From Minutocellus sp. GHC0000111 (lineage: Eukaryota): a DNA stretch of 64,000 nucleotides. The stretch is taken from contig OZ361257.1 in assembly GCA_977018835.1 (NCBI GenBank), positions 5,332,001 through 5,396,000 of the forward strand, read 5' to 3'. The translations under genes were made by a program, and so were the position numbers. Below are positions 1,210 to 47,849 of the stretch, piece after piece; position 1 is the stretch's first letter, and the number at the start of each line of letters is the position of its first letter. A model generated the notes under the pieces. That model was not told the origin of the DNA. It saw nothing but the letters and a program-made list of their open reading frames with translations, and did not search any database.

Positions 1210-1443
1210 GATTGCTCTTTACTGACTGACCACCGTGGAATGAGCAGAGAGGCAGGCGTTGTTCTGTTCAGGCAGATTTCGCCTTTCGCTTTGATGATTT
1301 GATTATTCGATGGCCAAGAAGCAGCGATGTGGAGTGAAGGACAGACCGAGCCACCGGCGGACGGCCGGCCCAAGCGCTTTTGCAAGCGCGCCCGAAAGCC
1401 AAGCATCTACTGCAGTGTACACTCACCGGCCGCACCGGTAACC

Positions 1444-3011
1444 ATGTCTGCCTGGGGAAAGGGCAGCTCGCTCCGCTCCTGCGACTCACTTCTCGAAAGG
1501 GTTGAGAAGAATGATCCAAATTTACAAAGTCTGGCTCTTCTGCCCCTAAAGAATTTCACGTCCGACGACTGCCTTCGGCTTGCTTCTGCCATTCGAGGCA
1601 ATGGTGCCGAGGGGCACTTACGTTCCATCCACGCATCGGGCCATGCGGTATCAGTGGAAGCCTTGGAGGCGTTGGGGGCAGCCGTTGCCTGTTCTGGTGG
1701 GAAAATCACATCGCTGGCCATCGGCGATTCACAAATGGGTGACGAGGGAATAACGGCACTTTGTCGCGGTTTGTCGTACGAGTGTGCTACACCCTCGGAA
1801 GGCTCGTCGTCACCTTCAGCTCCAGCTCCAGCATTACAGGTTCTCGACCTCAGCTACAAGGGTGCGTCGAAAGGGGCCATGAGAGCCCTGGGTGAATGCT
1901 TATCAGCAAAACGGTATTCTTCTCTCGTCTCGCTAGATCTGTCCCGAAATGAGGGCATTGGTGAGAACGGTGGCATTGAGGTACTTTCCCAGGCTTTTGA
2001 CTTGGCTCGTGGCGGCGTCGCATTTCGCCATTTGCGCACTTTGAATTTGGCACAGTGCAACATCGGCCCTGATGATGCAAGCAAATTGGCATCATTCCTT
2101 CTTGCGAATGTAAAGGAGGCCGACAAACCCATTGATGAAGATGACACAGATACATCAGTACATGTACCAGTAGGGTCACGATCTCGGTTCGAGCTAATTT
2201 TGAATGCCAACCCAATAGAGAGCACAGGGTGCATTTTCATCGGATCACTGTTGAGCCGACAAGGGATCTCCTTCCTTTCCTCTTTGTCGTTGGTGGATTG
2301 CAATATCGGTGACGATGGCGTATCAGCGCTTGTGGACACTGCGAAAGCAGGGGGATGCTCTGGACTTATTACTCTGGATTTGACCAAATTACTAAAGTGG
2401 GGGCCGGGAAATTATCTACTGCTCTTGCTACAGAAGATGGGACGGCGCTCATGTCCTCCTTGCGTGAGTTGCGCTTATCAGATAATGACATTGGAGGAGA
2501 AGGAATTACAAGCATATGTCGACACCTCGTTCAGGTTCCGCAGTGGAAACGTATTGACGACGATAAATTGGGATCAAACAGCACTCTGTCTATCCTGGAA
2601 CTTTGCAAGACCAATTGTGGAGCTGATGGGTTTGCAGCAACGATGAAGTGCGGAGCTCTGACAAAACTTCGACTGTTTGGCAATCGTATGGGATCGGCCG
2701 GGTTTCTTGCTGCAGCGCCACTACTCCGAGGAGGTCATCCGGCCCTGGTGGAGTTGGACATTGGTGGTAACGACGCAAAGGAAGACGCAATTGAGAACCT
2801 CTTGCGGGAGATCAGTGCCACTGATATCGACAATGCATTTGATTCCACCTTGCGGATACTTGAGATTGGAGGAAACGAAGTGGGAGAGAATGTGGAGCTC
2901 GCTCTCAAGCATCTCAAGGTGGTCCGGCCAGAGCTTGATGTTGCTCGAGACAAGCCAAAGAGCAATGAACCTTGGGCAGAAAGTGAGCAAGACGCCAATA
3001 TCGGTATGTAA
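1444..3011 (+). CDS. RNI-like leucine-rich repeat protein (frameshift near 2385)
   Basis: Repeated LxxLxLxxNxIGxxG motifs in two overlapping ORFs (1327-2646, 2355-3011) that join at ...ITLDLTK / QITKVG; first ATG at 1444. Confidence 0.85.
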
Positions 3012-3207
3012 AGGTTGCCTTGCTAGTCTAGAGTATGAATGAATGCTGATGAGAATAGAATTCTCATTTTCAAGTAGGTCGCTTGCATCGCAAGTTAATA
3101 TATCCTTACCTAGGTACGTTTATACTCTCCAGGCCTACGTGATACATGTAAGAGAGTACATTTATCACAAAATATGTAGGAATTCCTTTTTGTCGACGTT
3201 CGTGTCT

Positions 3208-3325
3208 TTTCACTCCATGATGGTCACCCCTTCTTGAGAAAAACAAAACAAATGCTTGCTCTCTTTTTGGATTCATTCATTTGTATTGTTCCCTTCGTAA
3301 AAGGGGGTCATTCTCATTAGCAAAA
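3208..3325 (-). promoter_or_regulatory. Candidate eukaryotic SECIS element in the 3' UTR of the DCC1-like gene
   Basis: Minus strand, folded by hand: helix I UUUUGCU-A-AUGA / UCAU-GG-AGUGAAA; core AUGAC (3311-3307) / UGAC (3226-3223); helix II CCCCUUUU/AGAAGGGG; AA 12 nt after AUGA; 19-nt apical stem with 2 mismatches; 23-nt loop. Confidence 0.75.
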
Positions 3326-3380
3326 TTTTCAATTGCCTGCGCTAGGAATTCCTACCGGTGCTTCCCATCTACTCCTTTGT

Positions 3381-4118
3381 CTAGCAATGTCTTTCTTTGT
3401 ACACGAGTGGTTTAGTCTCCTCCTTGGTATCATCATCATCGTCATGGTCATTGTCTTCTCGTCCCACCGGCATCCCTCCGCCATTTTCAACATCCCTTGC
3501 AGGCAATAGCTCAGCACTCTTTCCTCCATCGACACAGAATCCCCAACCCGGATCGAGCGGCTCCACCAGGCCCACCATTTTATCCCTGTGTTCAACCAAA
3601 TATGTGTCGCCCATGCCAAAAGCACGCTTCACACGTTTCCAAATCGTTCCTCGATGATTGGCGAACATTCTGCACCCGGCATCTCGAAGGCATGCCGGTA
3701 TCAGAAGTAGGAGAGCCCCCAGAAAGGTGTAAGGGAAACCCATAAACTGAAAAAGCTTCAAGACCGAGGTGGAGTGCGTATAACTCCCACCATCGGTATC
3801 GATGAGGGCTGCCGTGGACACGTCGGTCGGCAATCCTCGCGATTCGAGCATGGCTTGGGCATACTTTGTTTGGATGGGCGAGAATCGCAACTGGTCGGAT
3901 CGATCCCGAGACGAAACAAATCCGACCAGGTATTTTCACACGCCTCAGGGGCCGTCGTAAAAGAACGTTGGGTGTGAGGGAGGGGGTGTAGGAGAGGAGC
4001 ATGGGGCAGTTGCGTCAGTTGCGCCATCGGCCCTCGCTGTCATTGCAGGTACAGCCGCGTTGGTGGCGGCGGCGGCGGCTCTTGGCCGCTTGCCGCATGT
4101 AGTCGTGGGGGAGCACAT
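3381..4118 (-). CDS. DCC1-like (DUF393) thiol-disulfide oxidoreductase, predicted selenoprotein with a DxxUxxU motif
   Basis: ORFs 3945-4142 and 3381-3890 are in the same frame: ...TFFYDGP*GV*KYLVGFVSSRDRSDQLRFSPIQ...YTHSTSVLKLF..IPACLRDAG..FANHR. TGA at 3947-3945 and 3938-3936 fall on both Cys of DxxCxxC. Start at ATG 4118 or 4043. Confidence 0.85.
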
Positions 4119-4318
4119 AGTGGAGGATAGGAGCCAATTCACTTCTACGTAGCATAGCTCGCTAGGATCCCTAGCTAGCTAGCTACGTATCTACCAGAGT
4201 CAAGTCGACTTACTAGCTAGTATGGCGGCAAATGAATGCTAATGACTGACTCTCGTGGCATATCTCTCCTTCCAAAGCGCGCATCTTCTATTTTCCGACT
4301 GCTAACAAGAAATTGACG

Positions 4319-5191
4319 ATGAGCCACCTGCCTGTTCATCGTAATGCCCACCGCCGTTGGCTTGGCAGGATGACCACCAGAATGTGTACCAAAGGCAAAA
4401 ACGACAAGGAGGCACTGCCCCGCTTCGTTGTCACAGGTTTCGGGCCGTTTCGGGGGGTGGCAGAAAATCCTACGACGACCATCGTCAACGAATTGCACAC
4501 GTACCTAACCAATGTCTGCGACATTGGACTGAGCAGTTGCACTCCGAAGCGGTTGGCCTCCAACGTCACGACACACATCTTCGAAACGTCAGCAGAAGAT
4601 GTAAGGCAGTGGCAAGACGAATGGATCGATAGATTGTCGCGTGGTGAAACAGATTCCGAAGCGGCCGCGGCAGAATTGTCTGACCAGGGGAGAAACGATG
4701 TTGTATTGCTCCATCTTGGCGTTCACTACAAGGCCAAATGTTTTCACTTGGAAAGCTCAGCCTACAACGATGCCTCGTTTCGAGTTCCTGACGAGCGCGG
4801 CTATCAACCCAATGGTGAATGTGTGTTGCCAGCGGGTGATGGATGTCATGGAGATCGGTTATCAACAACTCTCAAAGTACCGGTCTTGGTTAAGAAAATG
4901 GAGTCGCGTGGCTACCCTAGCAAGCTGAGCGGTGATCCTGGGCGATTTGTTTGCAACTACACGTATTGCTATTCTCTCAACAAGTGCAATCAATTCAACT
5001 CAACGGTGCTACCTCCTGACACAGCCAGTGTTGTAGATCTAGTGGATACTCCAAAAAGAAGGCCAACTCTCTCTTCCCTCTTCGTTCATGTGCCTCTCTT
5101 TCACGTCACTGCGAAGGATCAGCAATTGGAATTCTTGGCTGTGCTTCTTGATGAGATATCAGTATGTCTTAGGGGGGAACGTTCGAGCTAG
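4319..5191 (+). CDS. Pyroglutamyl peptidase I (peptidase C15)
   Basis: VVTGFGPF.GV.ENPT, LHLGV, LESSAYN (Glu), DPGRFVCNYTY (Cys), FVHVP (His). Start ATG 4319 or 4369-region uncertain. Confidence 0.92.
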   Translation: MSHLPVHRNAHRRWLGRMTTRMCTKGKNDKEALPRFVVTGFGPFRGVAENPTTTIVNELHTYLTNVCDIGLSSCTPKRLASNVTTHIFETSAEDVRQWQDEWIDRLSRGETDSEAAAAELSDQGRNDVVLLHLGVHYKAKCFHLESSAYNDASFRVPDERGYQPNGECVLPAGDGCHGDRLSTTLKVPVLVKKMESRGYPSKLSGDPGRFVCNYTYCYSLNKCNQFNSTVLPPDTASVVDLVDTPKRRPTLSSLFVHVPLFHVTAKDQQLEFLAVLLDEISVCLRGERSS

Positions 5192-25112: not shown

Positions 25113-25412
25113 CGCATGGCTAGGCCTACGTAGGCCTACTAGCTAGCTCCGTAGCATCGCGGCACACGGCGGGAAGAACCCGGAAAATAGCCGAAATTCA
25201 TGATGATGTTGTATTATTGTGGCACTGTTGCGTTGTGGCCGACGAGCCGACATACAAGGAGGAATGCGAATATTCATCGGGTGAAGAAGTGAAGAAGCTT
25301 CTTCCCCCGCTGAATCGAATCATCGAACCTTCCTGCGTACTACGTAGCTAGCTAGCTAGTAGCTACGTAGCTAGAGCACGAAGTGACGATTTCGGCTCGA
25401 CTCCAAAATTCA

Positions 25413-27770
25413 ATGATGCGCCGGCAAACCACTCCCTACGATGAAACGTGGGACGACATCGTGTCGACTCAAACAATCGTCTCCACCCGTGAGGAAGCCT
25501 TGGACTCTGTTGTTGTTGGGAAACCGGCTGGTCTACCCAAAGGTTTCCTTTTGAACAGCTTCAAGCGGTTTTGGCTGTGGCACGTTCCAATCATTCTCAA
25601 ACCATGTGTTGGGCTGGGATGTCTACGCGCAGGAACACTGCTCTGGGCCCGTCGTTCTGATGGCGATGGCGTTCCTATAATTTCCGGACCAAATCTCCAT
25701 AATGTTGGTAAACAGGCCATGGGAGAAATGGTGACGCTGTTGCTTGGCATAACATCCGACAAATCCTTTTGGACAAATGTGGCCGGGGTTGTCCTCCGTT
25801 TCTCTCTAACATCCGTCGGCTTGATTGGATTCCGCATTTGTCAGCGCTTGTCGTGGCGAACTACCGAGCTTGGCACGTTTCCCAGCGTAAAGGATGATCC
25901 AACATATCAAGACGAAGAATTACTGGCCAAGGCGTGGAGTGTTGCAGCTCGGCAAGGATGGAAAGATCCTAACAATTGCCGCGACTACAAGGAGGGTGTC
26001 GGAGGGGGAGCAGTCGTCGTGCAACCCCGCCCGGGCTTTTGTGGCATTGCGACTCTCAACTCAACACTTCGATCATTCGGTGGTATTCTAGCCGATGGTG
26101 CAGCACCCTACCTATCTCTTCATTCCTTTCCTAGATATGTAACAATGGAAGAAATGGTACAACTTATCAAGAGAGTGGTGGTCCGTAAAGATCCAAATGA
26201 AAAGAGCGAGTGGGAAAGAGGTGGAGGCAACCCCATCGAATCTATGCAGGTAATCGGCGGGGGCAAGAGAGGCTTTGGCTCCCTTGAGCAGTTCAGAGCG
26301 GCGCTTCGTCAGCTTTCGCATCCGACGCAGCCGGCTAGAATAATGGCGATTTATCATCGCAGTCCGCTCTTCAATTGTTCGGGCGATCGAAGTGTCAAGT
26401 CCAAAATTGCTTGCTTTCCCATGGTCCATTGGAGTCCTGTTCTTGCCTATCTCGAGGAAGAAGATCTAGTGTTGGTGATGGATGTCAACCATCACTACGG
26501 TTCCAAGGGATATCTCGTACCGACAAACCGATTTTATTTTTCGGTTAATACGAGGGACATTTTCAATGGCAATTTCCACGGTCTTATCTTACTCCGCCCT
26601 CCGCCTCCAAAAGGCGAGCTACCTCTACTTACTTCAGCAAACGACATATCGGCTGAGTTTGGAAGAATTAAAAATGCTTACTATGAACATCAGGCAGCTG
26701 GGAGAGGAATCGCTGCAGATTCGCTTCTTGAATCAAGTGAAGAAGGCTACATGCCTCTTCCTCGCAATGAGGAGGAAGATAAGGCAATACGATCTATTTC
26801 TGTTACTGGCACCGATTCTAACAGTATCTCGGCCGTTGTTTCCGCTCATCCTGTTGCCTTTTGCAACGAAATATTTCTGCTTGGACCAGGCAGTATTCCA
26901 TCGCTGGATTCTGTTCGCTCGTTAGTTGACGTGTCTACAAAGCTTCGTGTTCCTGCACGTGTCGCCGTGAGGGGTTGCGATTCTGCAAGCGCAAAGCGAA
27001 TTCATGGTGTGCTCGTTGCGGCAGGATTTGTACAGTTAATGAAATCAGCAGAGGTATTGTCCATGGTCCTTAAGCCTTGTCCTACCAGCTGTAAGAGTCC
27101 AGAAGATCGGCTTCCGTCGGATTATGAGATTAGGGAGGTTATCCATAGAGCAGCCGACAAGTCTCATTCCGAGATCGTCGAAGAACTGGGGAGGCTCATA
27201 GTTGCCAGCTACAAAATGCCGAATGTGCCGCGACGTGGATATAGCACCGCAGATTTTTATGCCCATGCCTACCAGACCTTTGATCATGGGGGTGCTGATT
27301 GTGACTTGCGGCATTTTGCATGTTTCCATCGAGAGACAGGCGAGATGGCCTCTTGCGTGGCTCTTTTTTGCAATCAAAGTGGCACTGCCAAAGGAACTAG
27401 ATCTGATATTGCCGCAATATACAATATCTGTACCAGCATAAAACATCGGCGCAAAGGACTTGGCAAAACCATGACTCTCTTTGCTATGGAGCAAGCCAAA
27501 GAGATGGGGTGTGAACAGGTCCTCCTTGAGGCCAGCCGTGAAGGCAAACCTCTTTATCAAGCCATGGGGTTTGTAAAGACATCAGAAGAGGTTGGTGGGA
27601 TTTATCTTTCGCTGAGTGGCGCCACAGTCGACTTCAGGTGGAAAAATTTCTTTCGTCTATTCGAGTTACGACTGAGGTTGAAGAATGGAGGGATTTCGTA
27701 TTATCCAAGATACCTATTTTTTGTGGTGCGGCGAATGCTTACAAAGAGAAATACGGCAAATTATATGTAA
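25413..27770 (+). CDS. Phytochelatin-synthase-like papain-fold domain fused to a C-terminal GNAT acetyltransferase
   Basis: QPRPGFCGIATLN (Cys), VHWSPVLAY (His), DLVLVMDVN (Asp); IYNICT...HRRKGLGKTM...LLEAS.EGKPLYQAMGF. Confidence 0.8.
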   Translation: MMRRQTTPYDETWDDIVSTQTIVSTREEALDSVVVGKPAGLPKGFLLNSFKRFWLWHVPIILKPCVGLGCLRAGTLLWARRSDGDGVPIISGPNLHNVGKQAMGEMVTLLLGITSDKSFWTNVAGVVLRFSLTSVGLIGFRICQRLSWRTTELGTFPSVKDDPTYQDEELLAKAWSVAARQGWKDPNNCRDYKEGVGGGAVVVQPRPGFCGIATLNSTLRSFGGILADGAAPYLSLHSFPRYVTMEEMVQLIKRVVVRKDPNEKSEWERGGGNPIESMQVIGGGKRGFGSLEQFRAALRQLSHPTQPARIMAIYHRSPLFNCSGDRSVKSKIACFPMVHWSPVLAYLEEEDLVLVMDVNHHYGSKGYLVPTNRFYFSVNTRDIFNGNFHGLILLRPPPPKGELPLLTSANDISAEFGRIKNAYYEHQAAGRGIAADSLLESSEEGYMPLPRNEEEDKAIRSISVTGTDSNSISAVVSAHPVAFCNEIFLLGPGSIPSLDSVRSLVDVSTKLRVPARVAVRGCDSASAKRIHGVLVAAGFVQLMKSAEVLSMVLKPCPTSCKSPEDRLPSDYEIREVIHRAADKSHSEIVEELGRLIVASYKMPNVPRRGYSTADFYAHAYQTFDHGGADCDLRHFACFHRETGEMASCVALFCNQSGTAKGTRSDIAAIYNICTSIKHRRKGLGKTMTLFAMEQAKEMGCEQVLLEASREGKPLYQAMGFVKTSEEVGGIYLSLSGATVDFRWKNFFRLFELRLRLKNGGISYYPRYLFFVVRRMLTKRNTANYM

Positions 27771-27810: not shown

Positions 27811-29166
27811 TTAGACGGATAGAGTGCCCTTGCTACTGGCAGTCTTCCCAGCCCTCCGAGGATCCACTGCGAGGCAAAGCTTGAGAGCCTGCCCAAATGC
27901 AGCAGCAGTCGCCAGTGCTGTATCCAGTACCTTGGTACCTTCCTTAACTTGCACAATATGGACAGTCATCTGGCCATTCATAACGAGCGAATCAAGAGCA
28001 TGCTCCAACATTTCTACCGATAGATCACAGACATCCCCTCCGACGTATTCCTCTCCGGCGGCATTGGATGCCAGAGCCAAGTTGTGAGTCAGACAGGGTC
28101 GATTAGAAAGATCCATAGTCACTTCGACGATTGCGTCACTGGATGATGCTCTGGCACACCACATTCTGTTCAATCCTGCCTTGGTGCCAAGCGCCTTGTG
28201 GAGGCATTGGCCGATGGCAATCCCAACATCTTCCGTCGTGTGATGATCATCGACCCATGTATCGCCGGCGCATTTGACCGAAAGGCTGATCTTGGCCTCT
28301 TGGGCTAGCTTGGTAAATATCTTATCCAGTGTTGATAGACCTGTAGACACGGAAACCCCGTTATGCATCCAATCCAATTGAAGCGCCACGTCGATCGACG
28401 TTTCCTTGGTCTTGCGGGAGATGGATGCCGTCCGATTCAGTTCCAGTCCCTGCTTGTACGAGTCCGACTGGACACCCCATAGCGCCTCGAACTCGTGCAT
28501 ACTCTCTTCTCCATTGCTGGCGGTGGTAGTGGTCCCATCCAAAAGGTTCCGAAGGGCACGGCTGAAGGCCTCGAAGGCGCTCTCCACGACGTGATGGCCA
28601 TTGTCACCACGGATCTTGCGCAGGTTGATGGTCAGTCCCGAGGACTTGGCCAGGGAGTCGAAGAAGCAATTTAGATGCGCCGGTGCCATCTTACCGATGC
28701 GGGTTCGGCCGCCAGGAGAGGGGTATATCCCGTACGGTGCGAGAGTAAAGTCGCCCAGCTTTCCACCACCCTCTCCGTTGGCGTCGGCGGTGAGAGTGCA
28801 CTCCACCAGCGCTTCGTCAAGGGGACAGCAGAAGCGACTCGATCGGCCGTGCTCCTTCGCCTTGGCCGCTTCCACGAGCTTACCAATTTCACTTCCAAGC
28901 GCAGCGCCCACCGCAGACATGAGCTCGGCCTGCCGTTCGGGTGGATCGGCATATCGATTGCCATTGGACAGCAAGAGTGCGTATTCGTCGGAGGTACCAT
29001 TGCCATCTGTCTTTGCCTTGGCCGTGACGGCAATACCCACTTGGGCGTGTGAATTCAGTTGGTCCAGCATATGATCGAAGAAGCCAACTCCAGTGTTGAT
29101 CCCCTCCGACGGAGACTTGGTTAGGTCGGTGGCGGAGACACCGCTCAGCGCAAAAGAGCCTTCCAT
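27811..29166 (-). CDS. HIS3: Imidazoleglycerol-phosphate dehydratase, tandem two-domain form
   Basis: Domain 1: TGVGFFDHMLDQL, PLDEAL, GDNGHHVVESAF. Domain 2: RKTKET, DDHHTTEDVGIAIG, MDLSNRP, SSKGTL. Start taken at ATG 29166. Confidence 0.93.
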   Translation of the reverse strand: MEGSFALSGVSATDLTKSPSEGINTGVGFFDHMLDQLNSHAQVGIAVTAKAKTDGNGTSDEYALLLSNGNRYADPPERQAELMSAVGAALGSEIGKLVEAAKAKEHGRSSRFCCPLDEALVECTLTADANGEGGGKLGDFTLAPYGIYPSPGGRTRIGKMAPAHLNCFFDSLAKSSGLTINLRKIRGDNGHHVVESAFEAFSRALRNLLDGTTTTASNGEESMHEFEALWGVQSDSYKQGLELNRTASISRKTKETSIDVALQLDWMHNGVSVSTGLSTLDKIFTKLAQEAKISLSVKCAGDTWVDDHHTTEDVGIAIGQCLHKALGTKAGLNRMWCARASSSDAIVEVTMDLSNRPCLTHNLALASNAAGEEYVGGDVCDLSVEMLEHALDSLVMNGQMTVHIVQVKEGTKVLDTALATAAAFGQALKLCLAVDPRRAGKTASSKGTLSV

Positions 29167-29660
29167 GGTTGCCAGAGTTGTCCGTACTAGTCTAGAGAGA
29201 GTAGAGTATCTGGGCGAGTACGGCGGCGAGTAGGGAGGTGCAGAGGTCAGGGCCGCCGCGGTGGGCGGTAGCGCTATTGGGATATGAGCTGGGCTATGAG
29301 CTGGCTTCAATGCCGAGCTGCTCCGTGAAATGACCATCGACAAAAATGACTGACGCCGCGGGCAATAATCCGAAGACCGACCCAAGGCGCCAAGTACCAC
29401 CAGGCATTTTCATTTGCTTCTGATAGGTCTCCGCTTCTCTCACTCTAGAGTAGCTACATAGCTAGCTAGCTACGTAGCTAGATAAAGTCTAGAGCTAGCT
29501 ACAGTATCCCGCTCTCTCCCCACTCACGCGATCAGCCAGGCAAACGATCACGGCAAACGCTTAAGATACATCCCGCCCGGCCAAGCGAATCAATCAATCA
29601 TTCAATCACATCCTTTCCTTCTCAAATATCCTTTCCTTTCTTAAAAAGACACCCCCAGCG

Positions 29661-46519: not shown

Positions 46520-47509
46520 TCATTCGCAGTTCCTTCGTGTATTCATCATCTCAAGAATTCGAGGTAGTTCTGACAAATCTAAATTCCCGCCAGATAGTAT
46601 TCCAACAACCTTTTTGCCAACGAAACGGTCTCGGTATTTCATCGCTGCTGCCAATGATGCTGCTCCCGAACCCTCAGCCAAATTGTGCGTTGCTTGAAGT
46701 ACGTGGCCAACTGCTTCTCTCATTTCATCATCACCGACCAGAAGGGCGTCGTCCATCAATGCATTCATTATCGTCATTGTCATTTCTGCTGGGACTCTTG
46801 TTGCAATACCCTCTGCAAAAGTGTTGACCGAGTCGGCAGTCGTCCATTCTTTAGTTCGCCATGTTTCTACCACCGAGGGGGCACCTTCAGCCTGAACACC
46901 AATCACTTGTGTTTCCGGTCGCAAGTGCTTGGCAACAACCGCTGTTCCACAAACACCACTGCCAAGACCGATGGGAACCAAAATGACATCTGGATCGGGC
47001 AAGTCCTGAAAGATCTCGTATGCATAAGTTGCGACACCAGCAATAAGAGCTGGCTCATTTGCCGAGTGGACGTATCGTGCCCCGCCCTCTTGCACTACCA
47101 CTTCTTCCACATATTTTTTGGCGCCATCGTAATCTTTTCCCTCTTCAATCAATGTAGCACCAAGACCGCGCATTGCCTCATTTTTGCCAGGATTATTTCC
47201 TTCGGGCACCACGATCGTACAGTTCACCCCAGCCAACGTCGAAGAATATGCGAGCGATTGCCCATGGTTGCCCGTTGATACCGCTACAAGCCCTCTTGAT
47301 CTTGCCTCAAAATTCAGTGTCGAGACAAGATTGACGCCGCCTCTCACTTTAAAGGCCCCGACTGGCTGATGATTCTCGTGCTTGAGGTAGAATTCAAACC
47401 CAAGCAACTTGTTCAGCATTGGCCACGATCGCAACAGCGTCGGCCGAAGAACCCCATGGACTCTTGGCAGAGCCTCGAGCACGTGTTGGTATTGAACGGG
47501 GAGGTTCAT
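46520..47509 (-). CDS. PLP-dependent threonine/serine dehydratase (catalytic domain only)
   Basis: LKHENHQPVGAFKVRG, STGNHG, VPIGLGSG, EGSGAA.LAA, LSGGN. Confidence 0.92.
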   Translation of the reverse strand: MNLPVQYQHVLEALPRVHGVLRPTLLRSWPMLNKLLGFEFYLKHENHQPVGAFKVRGGVNLVSTLNFEARSRGLVAVSTGNHGQSLAYSSTLAGVNCTIVVPEGNNPGKNEAMRGLGATLIEEGKDYDGAKKYVEEVVVQEGGARYVHSANEPALIAGVATYAYEIFQDLPDPDVILVPIGLGSGVCGTAVVAKHLRPETQVIGVQAEGAPSVVETWRTKEWTTADSVNTFAEGIATRVPAEMTMTIMNALMDDALLVGDDEMREAVGHVLQATHNLAEGSGAASLAAAMKYRDRFVGKKVVGILSGGNLDLSELPRILEMMNTRRNCE

Positions 47510-47849
47510 TTGGTGCAATTTTGAGCATCGGCAAGGCAAGTGGGACGAATTATTGCTGGCTTTGCAAGATACCGACGGTCCCCAGTTTTGGCACACATGA
47601 TGTGCTGGTTTTGTTCTCGGGTACTCTCTAAAGTACACAGAACCTGAGCATGTAATTTACGTACGATTACGTACGTCCGAATTGTAATTTTCGCCAAAAT
47701 TTTGGCGGTCGGTCAGTAAGAGTCAAGACCCAGCCCAACCAGAGCGGTGGCGTGCATAGTCAAAGAGAGTGCTCTCCTGCTACTTCAATGCTAGTACGTT
47801 GCAACGTAGGAGAGAGGAGAGCTTCTTCTAGCGAAGAGAGACTTCCAAT

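Follow-up and report, generated by a model that had tools for sequence, protein, structure and literature searches.

The gene described here lies on the minus strand of a 64,000-nucleotide stretch of DNA, the whole of which is referred to as the window. Its reading frame, from 4118 to 3381, is interrupted by two TGA codons only and closes with a TAG at 3383-3381; the coordinates and the translation given for it by the original prediction were found to be correct. The features of the locus are as follows.

3381..4118, minus strand: coding sequence, 245 residues, with two in-frame TGA predicted to be read as Sec and a TAG stop
3945..3947, minus strand: TGA codon 58, at the first Cys position of DxxCxxC (predicted Sec58)
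3936..3938, minus strand: TGA codon 61, at the second Cys position of DxxCxxC (predicted Sec61)
3636..3962, minus strand: DCC1-like domain, residues 53-161, with a predicted glutaredoxin/thioredoxin-like fold (Pfam and model)
3537..3635, minus strand: conserved C-terminal extension of the clade, residues 162-194, ending in P-x-D-P-G-W-G-F
3088..3380, minus strand: 3' UTR, 293 nt, with poly(A) added at 3088
3208..3325, minus strand: predicted SECIS with a very long apical stem (folding and core descriptor)
4119..4219, minus strand: likely 5' UTR (RNA contig record 10 of run X5 spans 4054-4219), its extent being that of contig coverage only, since a contig cannot show where a transcript starts

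When the frame is read through both TGA, the motif F-Y-D-G-P-U-G-V-U-K-Y is obtained, in which D55 is followed by U58 and U61; the DxxCxxC register is retained, with Sec codons at both Cys. DCC1-like (PF04134) was the only Pfam family found for the protein at E<=0.1. The match extends over residues 53-161 with 58.8 bits (gathering cut-off 27.8) and covers profile positions 2-112/113 in one stretch that includes both TGA. It had been proposed that the two TGA fall on the two Cys of DxxCxxC, and the profile match, which runs through both codons in register, bears this out. The C-terminal extension (residues 162-194) lies outside the Pfam match; it is conserved in the alignment and in the top profile matches, and is folded in the structure model. 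As no signal peptide was seen by eye in the protein, a cytosolic location is likely.

In order to establish whether the two TGA belong to the gene itself, sequencing runs were examined. The stretch, or part of it, is present in 20 of the 24 runs listed (11 studies), and four of these (X1, X5, X7 and X17) were compared with the window as assembled contigs, not as raw reads. X1, covering all of the stretch, is possibly the source sample itself. Both TGA were kept in the three runs out of three that cover codons 58 and 61 (X1, X5 and X17), X7 having no coverage at these codons; all the covering contigs therefore carry TGA, and not TGC or TGT. The contig of the RNA run X5 over 3856-4081 showed no difference from the window. 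Furthermore, the contig of the RNA run X17, which comes from a diverged strain, spans 3871-4125 at a depth of 3.6 with both TGA present. These two RNA contigs cross both TGA without a joint, and no intron was found in the coding region; the possibility that an intron removes the segment was thus excluded.

The diverged strain also made it possible to follow selection on the gene. In X17, codons 55, 57, 62 and 63 are silently altered, these four changes lying within 9 nt of the two TGA, and codons 58 and 61 are unaltered. Over 109 core codons, 8 synonymous and 4 non-synonymous changes were counted (pN/pS 0.16, binomial p=0.002), and the frame is preserved by the X17 deletions, which total 9 and 30 nt. 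The window DCC1 gene is under purifying selection, the strain-level evidence being that of the single diverged strain X17. In addition, record 3 of the X17 contigs ends in 21 untemplated letters of poly(A) at 3088, 293 nt past the stop, where the genome has no A-run. This contig and the one that carries the TGA are separate records. The UGA codons are accordingly found with silent changes on both sides, no joint and a polyadenylated transcript.

A few positions deserve separate mention. At 3332-3333, 3673 and 4113, the window is unlike three of the four runs at each position. At 3673 it encodes Cys149, where the other three runs and the orthologues have Tyr, which reflects either an allele or an assembly error. 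At 3980-3960, the neighbouring frame reads Q-R-S-F, which resembles the Q-R-[AS]-L-F of the orthologues, and the main frame has H-P-T-F-F there. Either chance or an old frameshift, since fixed, may lie behind this; the X17 strain changes near this place are silent in the main frame.

A metagenome scan returned nine loci. Seven of them are close orthologues, corresponding to four distinct sequences (L001, identical to L002-L004, and L005, L006 and L007), the proteins of which are 49-54% identical to the window protein. The remaining two, L008 and L009, are distant (28-30% identical), and L008 is of the Cys-Cys type. Codon 61 is TGA in all four distinct orthologous loci, and codon 58 is TGA in two and Cys in the other two: L001 and L005 read C-G-V-TGA (CxxU), L006 and L007 TGA-G-V-TGA (UxxU). 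No other stop was found in the 145-148 codons of these four loci. When the window gene is included, in-frame TGA are confined to the two redox Cys positions in 5/5 Sec loci. The original prediction had made its case depend on orthologues with both UGA and hairpin, and these were obtained, since each of the four distinct loci has TGA together with a SECIS-type hairpin. As a side observation, the neighbour of the CxxU gene at L005:2705-3433 (minus strand) is, by eye, of the nucleoredoxin/thioredoxin type without its first Cys (W-R-A-E-C).

It had also been anticipated that gene callers would truncate the gene. Indeed, seven of the first eight database relatives start downstream of the motif; the remaining one, P0008, is CxxC and 62% identical to the window protein. 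Among the best 53 relatives, 43 are without the motif region, eight are CxxC and two (P0019 and P0032) read W-G-V-W. Some of the 43 may be fragments, and we take W-G-V-W, as judged from the protein sequences, to be TGA rendered as Trp by the gene caller. None of the ten relatives looked up bears a selenoprotein name, and no relative of the window protein was found in viral contigs. The eight CxxC sequences belong to the same group, so that the family can do without selenium. The window protein falls, in a quick tree built from 81 rows, into a clade of 30 rows (SH-aLRT 100, stem 0.91); members with UxxU, CxxU and CxxC are mixed within this clade, and the CxxC protein P0008 stands near the window protein with a support of 88 (unstarred).

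The 3' UTR was then considered. The hairpin of the window gene (3325-3208) begins 55 nt past the stop. Its core consists of A3311 and UGAC (3310-3307) opposite UGAC (3226-3223), with helix I below the core and helix II, 7/7 pairs, stacked upon it. The halves of the core are separated by 80 nt, and an AA is found at 3295-3294, 11 nt from the core. By reading of the fold, the X17 change at 3318 converts a mismatch of helix I to a pair. None of the six UTR substitutions between X17 and the window falls in the core-to-core stretch, which is not significant for about 90 of 293 nt. Two short local hairpins (3305-3290 and 3295-3240) were rejected as SECIS, being without a GA core.

A descriptor of the SECIS core, comprising core and helices, matched 5/5 Sec loci (window, L001, L005, L006 and L007) and 11 of 436 window tiles. 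The matches lie 35-89 nt past the stop in all five loci, with one match in the 3' UTR of the window gene. Per 300 shuffles, 6 matches were obtained for the window, 9 for L001, 28 for L005, 7 for L006 and 0 for L007; the descriptor was composed after the elements had been seen, so that the background and shuffle rates are optimistic. The L005 element taken alone is weak. Plain MAFFT did not align the five regions, and base pairs were therefore listed for each element starting from its core. The AUGA/GA core recurs in the 3' UTRs of all five loci, and the first three pairs of helix II are standard in each, though their letters differ between loci (C-G, G-U or U-A).

Nevertheless, these elements depart from the usual form. 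Rfam SECIS models gave no match at E<=10 in window 2900-3500, nor any in L001, L005, L006 and L007, because the five elements are too long or without an apical AA. In the part of PMC2375036 covered, the SECISearch spacing is given as 10-13 nt from the quartet to AA/CC, then 15-39 nt to GA, and none of the five elements has this spacing. The distance from AA to the 3' GA is 68 nt in the window, 50 nt in L001 and 45-46 nt in L007; L005 has CC at 8 or 14 nt from the quartet, and in L006 neither AA nor CC stands near where it would be expected. Thus, compared with that search pattern (PMC2375036, as covered), the window element is far longer between AA and GA, and the AA of the orthologues is CC or missing. 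However, the same portion of PMC2375036 describes long mini-stem SECIS, of type II, in Ostreococcus, Chlamydomonas and Dictyostelium, and CC variants too; the present elements have in common with the long mini-stem type the UGA/GA core, an extended apical stem and, in the window, the AA 11 nt from the quartet. For this reason, the misfit lowers the case for a canonical SECIS and not for a SECIS, and the over-long elements extend a known SECIS variation. Of the SECIS-like hairpin claimed, with no coordinates given, past the true stop, the SECIS-type core and helices at 3325-3208 were therefore recovered, in an element of atypical length with no Rfam match. The non-standard spacing may explain why SECIS-led surveys missed the gene. 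The true stop of the UxxU orthologue L006 (L006:816-818) is itself a TGA, 47 nt ahead of the SECIS core. A UGA so near a SECIS is not known to be recoded.

A 151-residue core of the protein was modelled with a mean pLDDT of 94.5. The model has the order strand-helix-strand-helix-strand-strand-helix, with a strand at 2-5 and a helix at 10-22, the Sec positions being model residues 9 and 12. The motif thus sits at the strand-1/helix-1 turn, which is the thioredoxin/glutaredoxin site. Structural matches were modest: the best (Z 5.3) was to GST/glutaredoxin/thioredoxin-type chains, none reached 8, and no solved structure is related by sequence to the DCC1 core.

Taken together, these results make it probable that the locus holds an intact single-exon gene in which both UGA are decoded as selenocysteine by means of one long 3' UTR SECIS, and that the product is a DCC1-family protein, a predicted thiol-disulfide oxidoreductase with a Sec-Gly-Val-Sec active site. 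Considered separately, Sec at both codons is very strongly favoured. Given Sec at both codons, the oxidoreductase role is highly likely. Selenium incorporation and diselenide chemistry are what we infer from these data. Following the known eukaryotic pathway, SBP2 would bind the SECIS core and eEFSec would bring Sec-tRNA to codons 58 and 61. By analogy with SELENOL, a single SECIS would recode both UGA (PMC3316567, in the part covered). In the predicted structure, Sec58 would cap helix 1 and Sec61 would lie in its first turn, after strand 1, and the pair would alternate between the diselenol and the diselenide state, reducing disulfides on partner proteins. Production of the enzyme would then depend on the supply of selenium, since translation would break off at codon 58 in its absence. 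The proposal of a two-Sec DCC1-family enzyme is hence upheld as a prediction, with the qualification that the family is not confined to this form, CxxU and CxxC members being present in the clade as well as UxxU, besides a distant bacterial UxxU group.

Both Sec might also be inserted in a protein that is not a catalytic oxidoreductase, the UxxU pair acting as a metal binder or as a one-shot selenium/oxidant sink. We regard this as unlikely. It is generally known that diselenides are difficult to re-reduce, which speaks for such a role. UxxU also occurs in a metal-binding protein and in an FmdB-family regulator in Table 1 of PMC13188914, as far as that source was covered. However, the motif is placed at a thioredoxin-type catalytic turn in the model, and CxxC, CxxU and UxxU interchange within one clade, as expected of one redox chemistry. 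Moreover, Arabidopsis DCC1 is reported to reduce CA2 of complex I directly, according to the passages covered of the review PMC7598583.

Much less probable still is a read-through in which an altered genetic code or a suppressor places Cys or Trp at UGA, with the hairpin as an incidental structure. The failure of Rfam to recognise the hairpin is in line with it, but TGA terminates ordinary genes in the window: 14 of the 33 frames at least 250 codons long close with it, and so does the PALP gene, at the point at which ten homologues also end, so that a genome-wide code change was rejected. The restriction of in-frame TGA to the two redox Cys in 5/5 loci and the AUGA/GA core in 5/5 3' UTRs also oppose this reading. 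Least probable of all is a pseudogene, a set of sequencing errors, or a shorter product from a downstream Met as gene callers report: errors or alleles exist, since the window differs from other runs at 3332-3333, 3673 and 4113, and the motif region is missing from 43 of the 53 top database relatives, but the same TGA are present in runs independent of one another and also in a diverged strain whose changes around them are silent. A dead gene does not fit the pN/pS of 0.16, nor the orthologues, which are about 50% identical and have TGA at these codons only. The shorter protein would be deprived of its active site along with strand 1 and helix 1.

A genome collection was scanned for bacterial genes with the pattern D-G-x-[C or TGA]-x-x-TGA in a DCC context. 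Of the 24 matches, four were due to chance; TGA stood at both Cys in 19 DCC1 genes and at the second Cys alone in one. As the pattern is blind to UxxC and fixes several downstream letters, 19 is a lower bound. These 19 genes (L011-L013, L015-L023, L025, L027, L028 and L030-L033, around 556-681) are, by record title, mostly from Chloroflexota. Their genomes have selB above the cut-off in 19/19 cases and selA in 17/19, with a partial selA in one more. The second-only match, a Tardiphaga DCC1 (L010:285-674), stands in a genome without selA and selB, and its TGA is probably a nonsense change or an error.

By folding, a hairpin is predicted soon after the second UGA in most of the 19 genes. Many of them show, besides this first SECIS-like hairpin, a second one about 36-52 nt past the second UGA, over the G-R-V codons. 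The bacterial genes, which stand in Sec-utilising genomes, have in common with the window gene the Pfam family and the double TGA at DxxCxxC, and differ from it in that the hairpin lies within the coding sequence just past the second UGA, whereas that of the window gene lies in the 3' UTR. The listed relatives of one bacterial protein were scored too: of these 120, 56 are CxxC, 61 are motif-less and three are mis-parsed; none displays U, and their names are plain DCC or DUF393. Neither the window protein nor P0008 has an NCBIfam model, and the same is true of five bacterial UxxU proteins.

The bacterial UxxU proteins are 17-25% identical to the window protein. In an AU test on the quick tree (42 of the 81 rows), joining the window clade and the bacterial group was not rejected (p=0.64), and an independent origin of the two was dropped as a claim.

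The gene was then compared with known systems. With the Cys-type DCC1-like/DUF393/YuxK oxidoreductases (PF04134; Arabidopsis DCC1), it shares the Pfam match and the DxxCxxC register, and Cys-Cys members are found in the same clade; it differs from them by TGA at both Cys, by the 3' UTR SECIS and by the 33-residue C-terminal extension of its clade. Unlike Arabidopsis DCC1, which is mitochondrial in the part of PMC7598583 covered, the window protein has no evident targeting peptide. As for the diselenide, one in SelL was reportedly described by Shchedrina in 2007. In the portions of the literature covered, SELENOL has two Sec two residues apart with one SECIS for both (PMC3316567), and UxxU SELENOW is present in amphioxus and Ostreococcus (PMC7539508). 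The window gene resembles SELENOL in its UxxU and single SECIS (two TGA 9 nt apart, one descriptor match). It is set apart from SELENOL and UxxU SELENOW as a different family by its sole Pfam match, DCC1-like, and by a SECIS much longer than usual.

The original prediction had supposed that DCC1 is absent from the described eukaryotic selenoprotein families, and the main texts of the catalogues covered agree with this. In the full-text literature, no DCC/DUF393 selenoprotein was found. The main text of PMC7539508 (42 algal families) has no DCC or DUF term; that of PMC13188914 (119 prokaryotic families), as covered, has no PF04134, DUF393, COG3011 or DCC. The alignments of PMC2375036 contain no DCC-type motif among 13 YDG/FDG occurrences, and PMC2398784 has no DCC or DUF term. 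The DCC1 family and the recoding mechanism are each known; it is their combination that is absent from the catalogues, in the parts covered.

New eukaryotic selenoprotein families are rare, and UxxU sites are rarer, the eukaryotic cases being SELENOL and a few SELENOW in the literature as far as covered. If correct, the present reading adds to the algal selenoproteins a family with a rare selenium-selenium active site, which public protein databases mostly hold as fragments without that site. Furthermore, natural versions with CxxC, CxxU and UxxU, 50-60% identical, are found side by side in one small clade of single-domain proteins, so that what the second Sec and the diselenide give an oxidoreductase becomes directly testable. 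Selenoprotein genes in diatoms number 16 (PMC2375036) or 20-44 (PMC7539508) in the parts of these sources covered. Because the SECIS elements described above fall beyond the limits of standard searches, the count of diatom selenoproteins, and with it the selenium demand ascribed to diatoms, may well be too low.

A wider view, towards which we lean by a small degree, is that DCC1 is a selenoprotein family overlooked in two domains of life, in which UxxU arose more than once, with an in-frame SECIS in bacteria and a 3' UTR SECIS in diatoms. The over-long diatom SECIS, with its optional AA, would then form a class that standard searches miss, and further diatom selenoproteins would likely be hidden alike.

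Finally, several other genes of the window were noted. A pyroglutamyl peptidase gene (4250-5191, plus strand) is placed head-to-head with the DCC1 gene, the start codons being about 200 nt apart, and the two may share a promoter; in run X7, 42 nt of the spacer between them are skipped, at 4152-4195. On the other side, a leucine-rich-repeat gene (1303-3011, plus strand) is found in two overlapping frames (1303-2646 and 2313-3011), which denotes an intron or a frameshift. Eukaryote-type genes of the window encode GRIP/GRAB, 7tm_3, NIF with BRCT, and a kinase with EF-hands; no tRNA gene was found in the 64 kb. The best named relative of the PALP gene is from the diatom Odontella aurita (78%), and on the strength of this one gene a diatom is the likely host. 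A threonine dehydratase-type gene (46520-47656, minus strand) has a few close eukaryote-like matches, after which the named relatives are mostly planctomycete (65-67%), and a bacterial origin is possible. A phytochelatin synthase-like domain is fused to a GNAT domain in one frame at 25371-27770 (plus strand), and the adjoining frame at 27811-29409 (minus strand) contains three IGPD-matching stretches.
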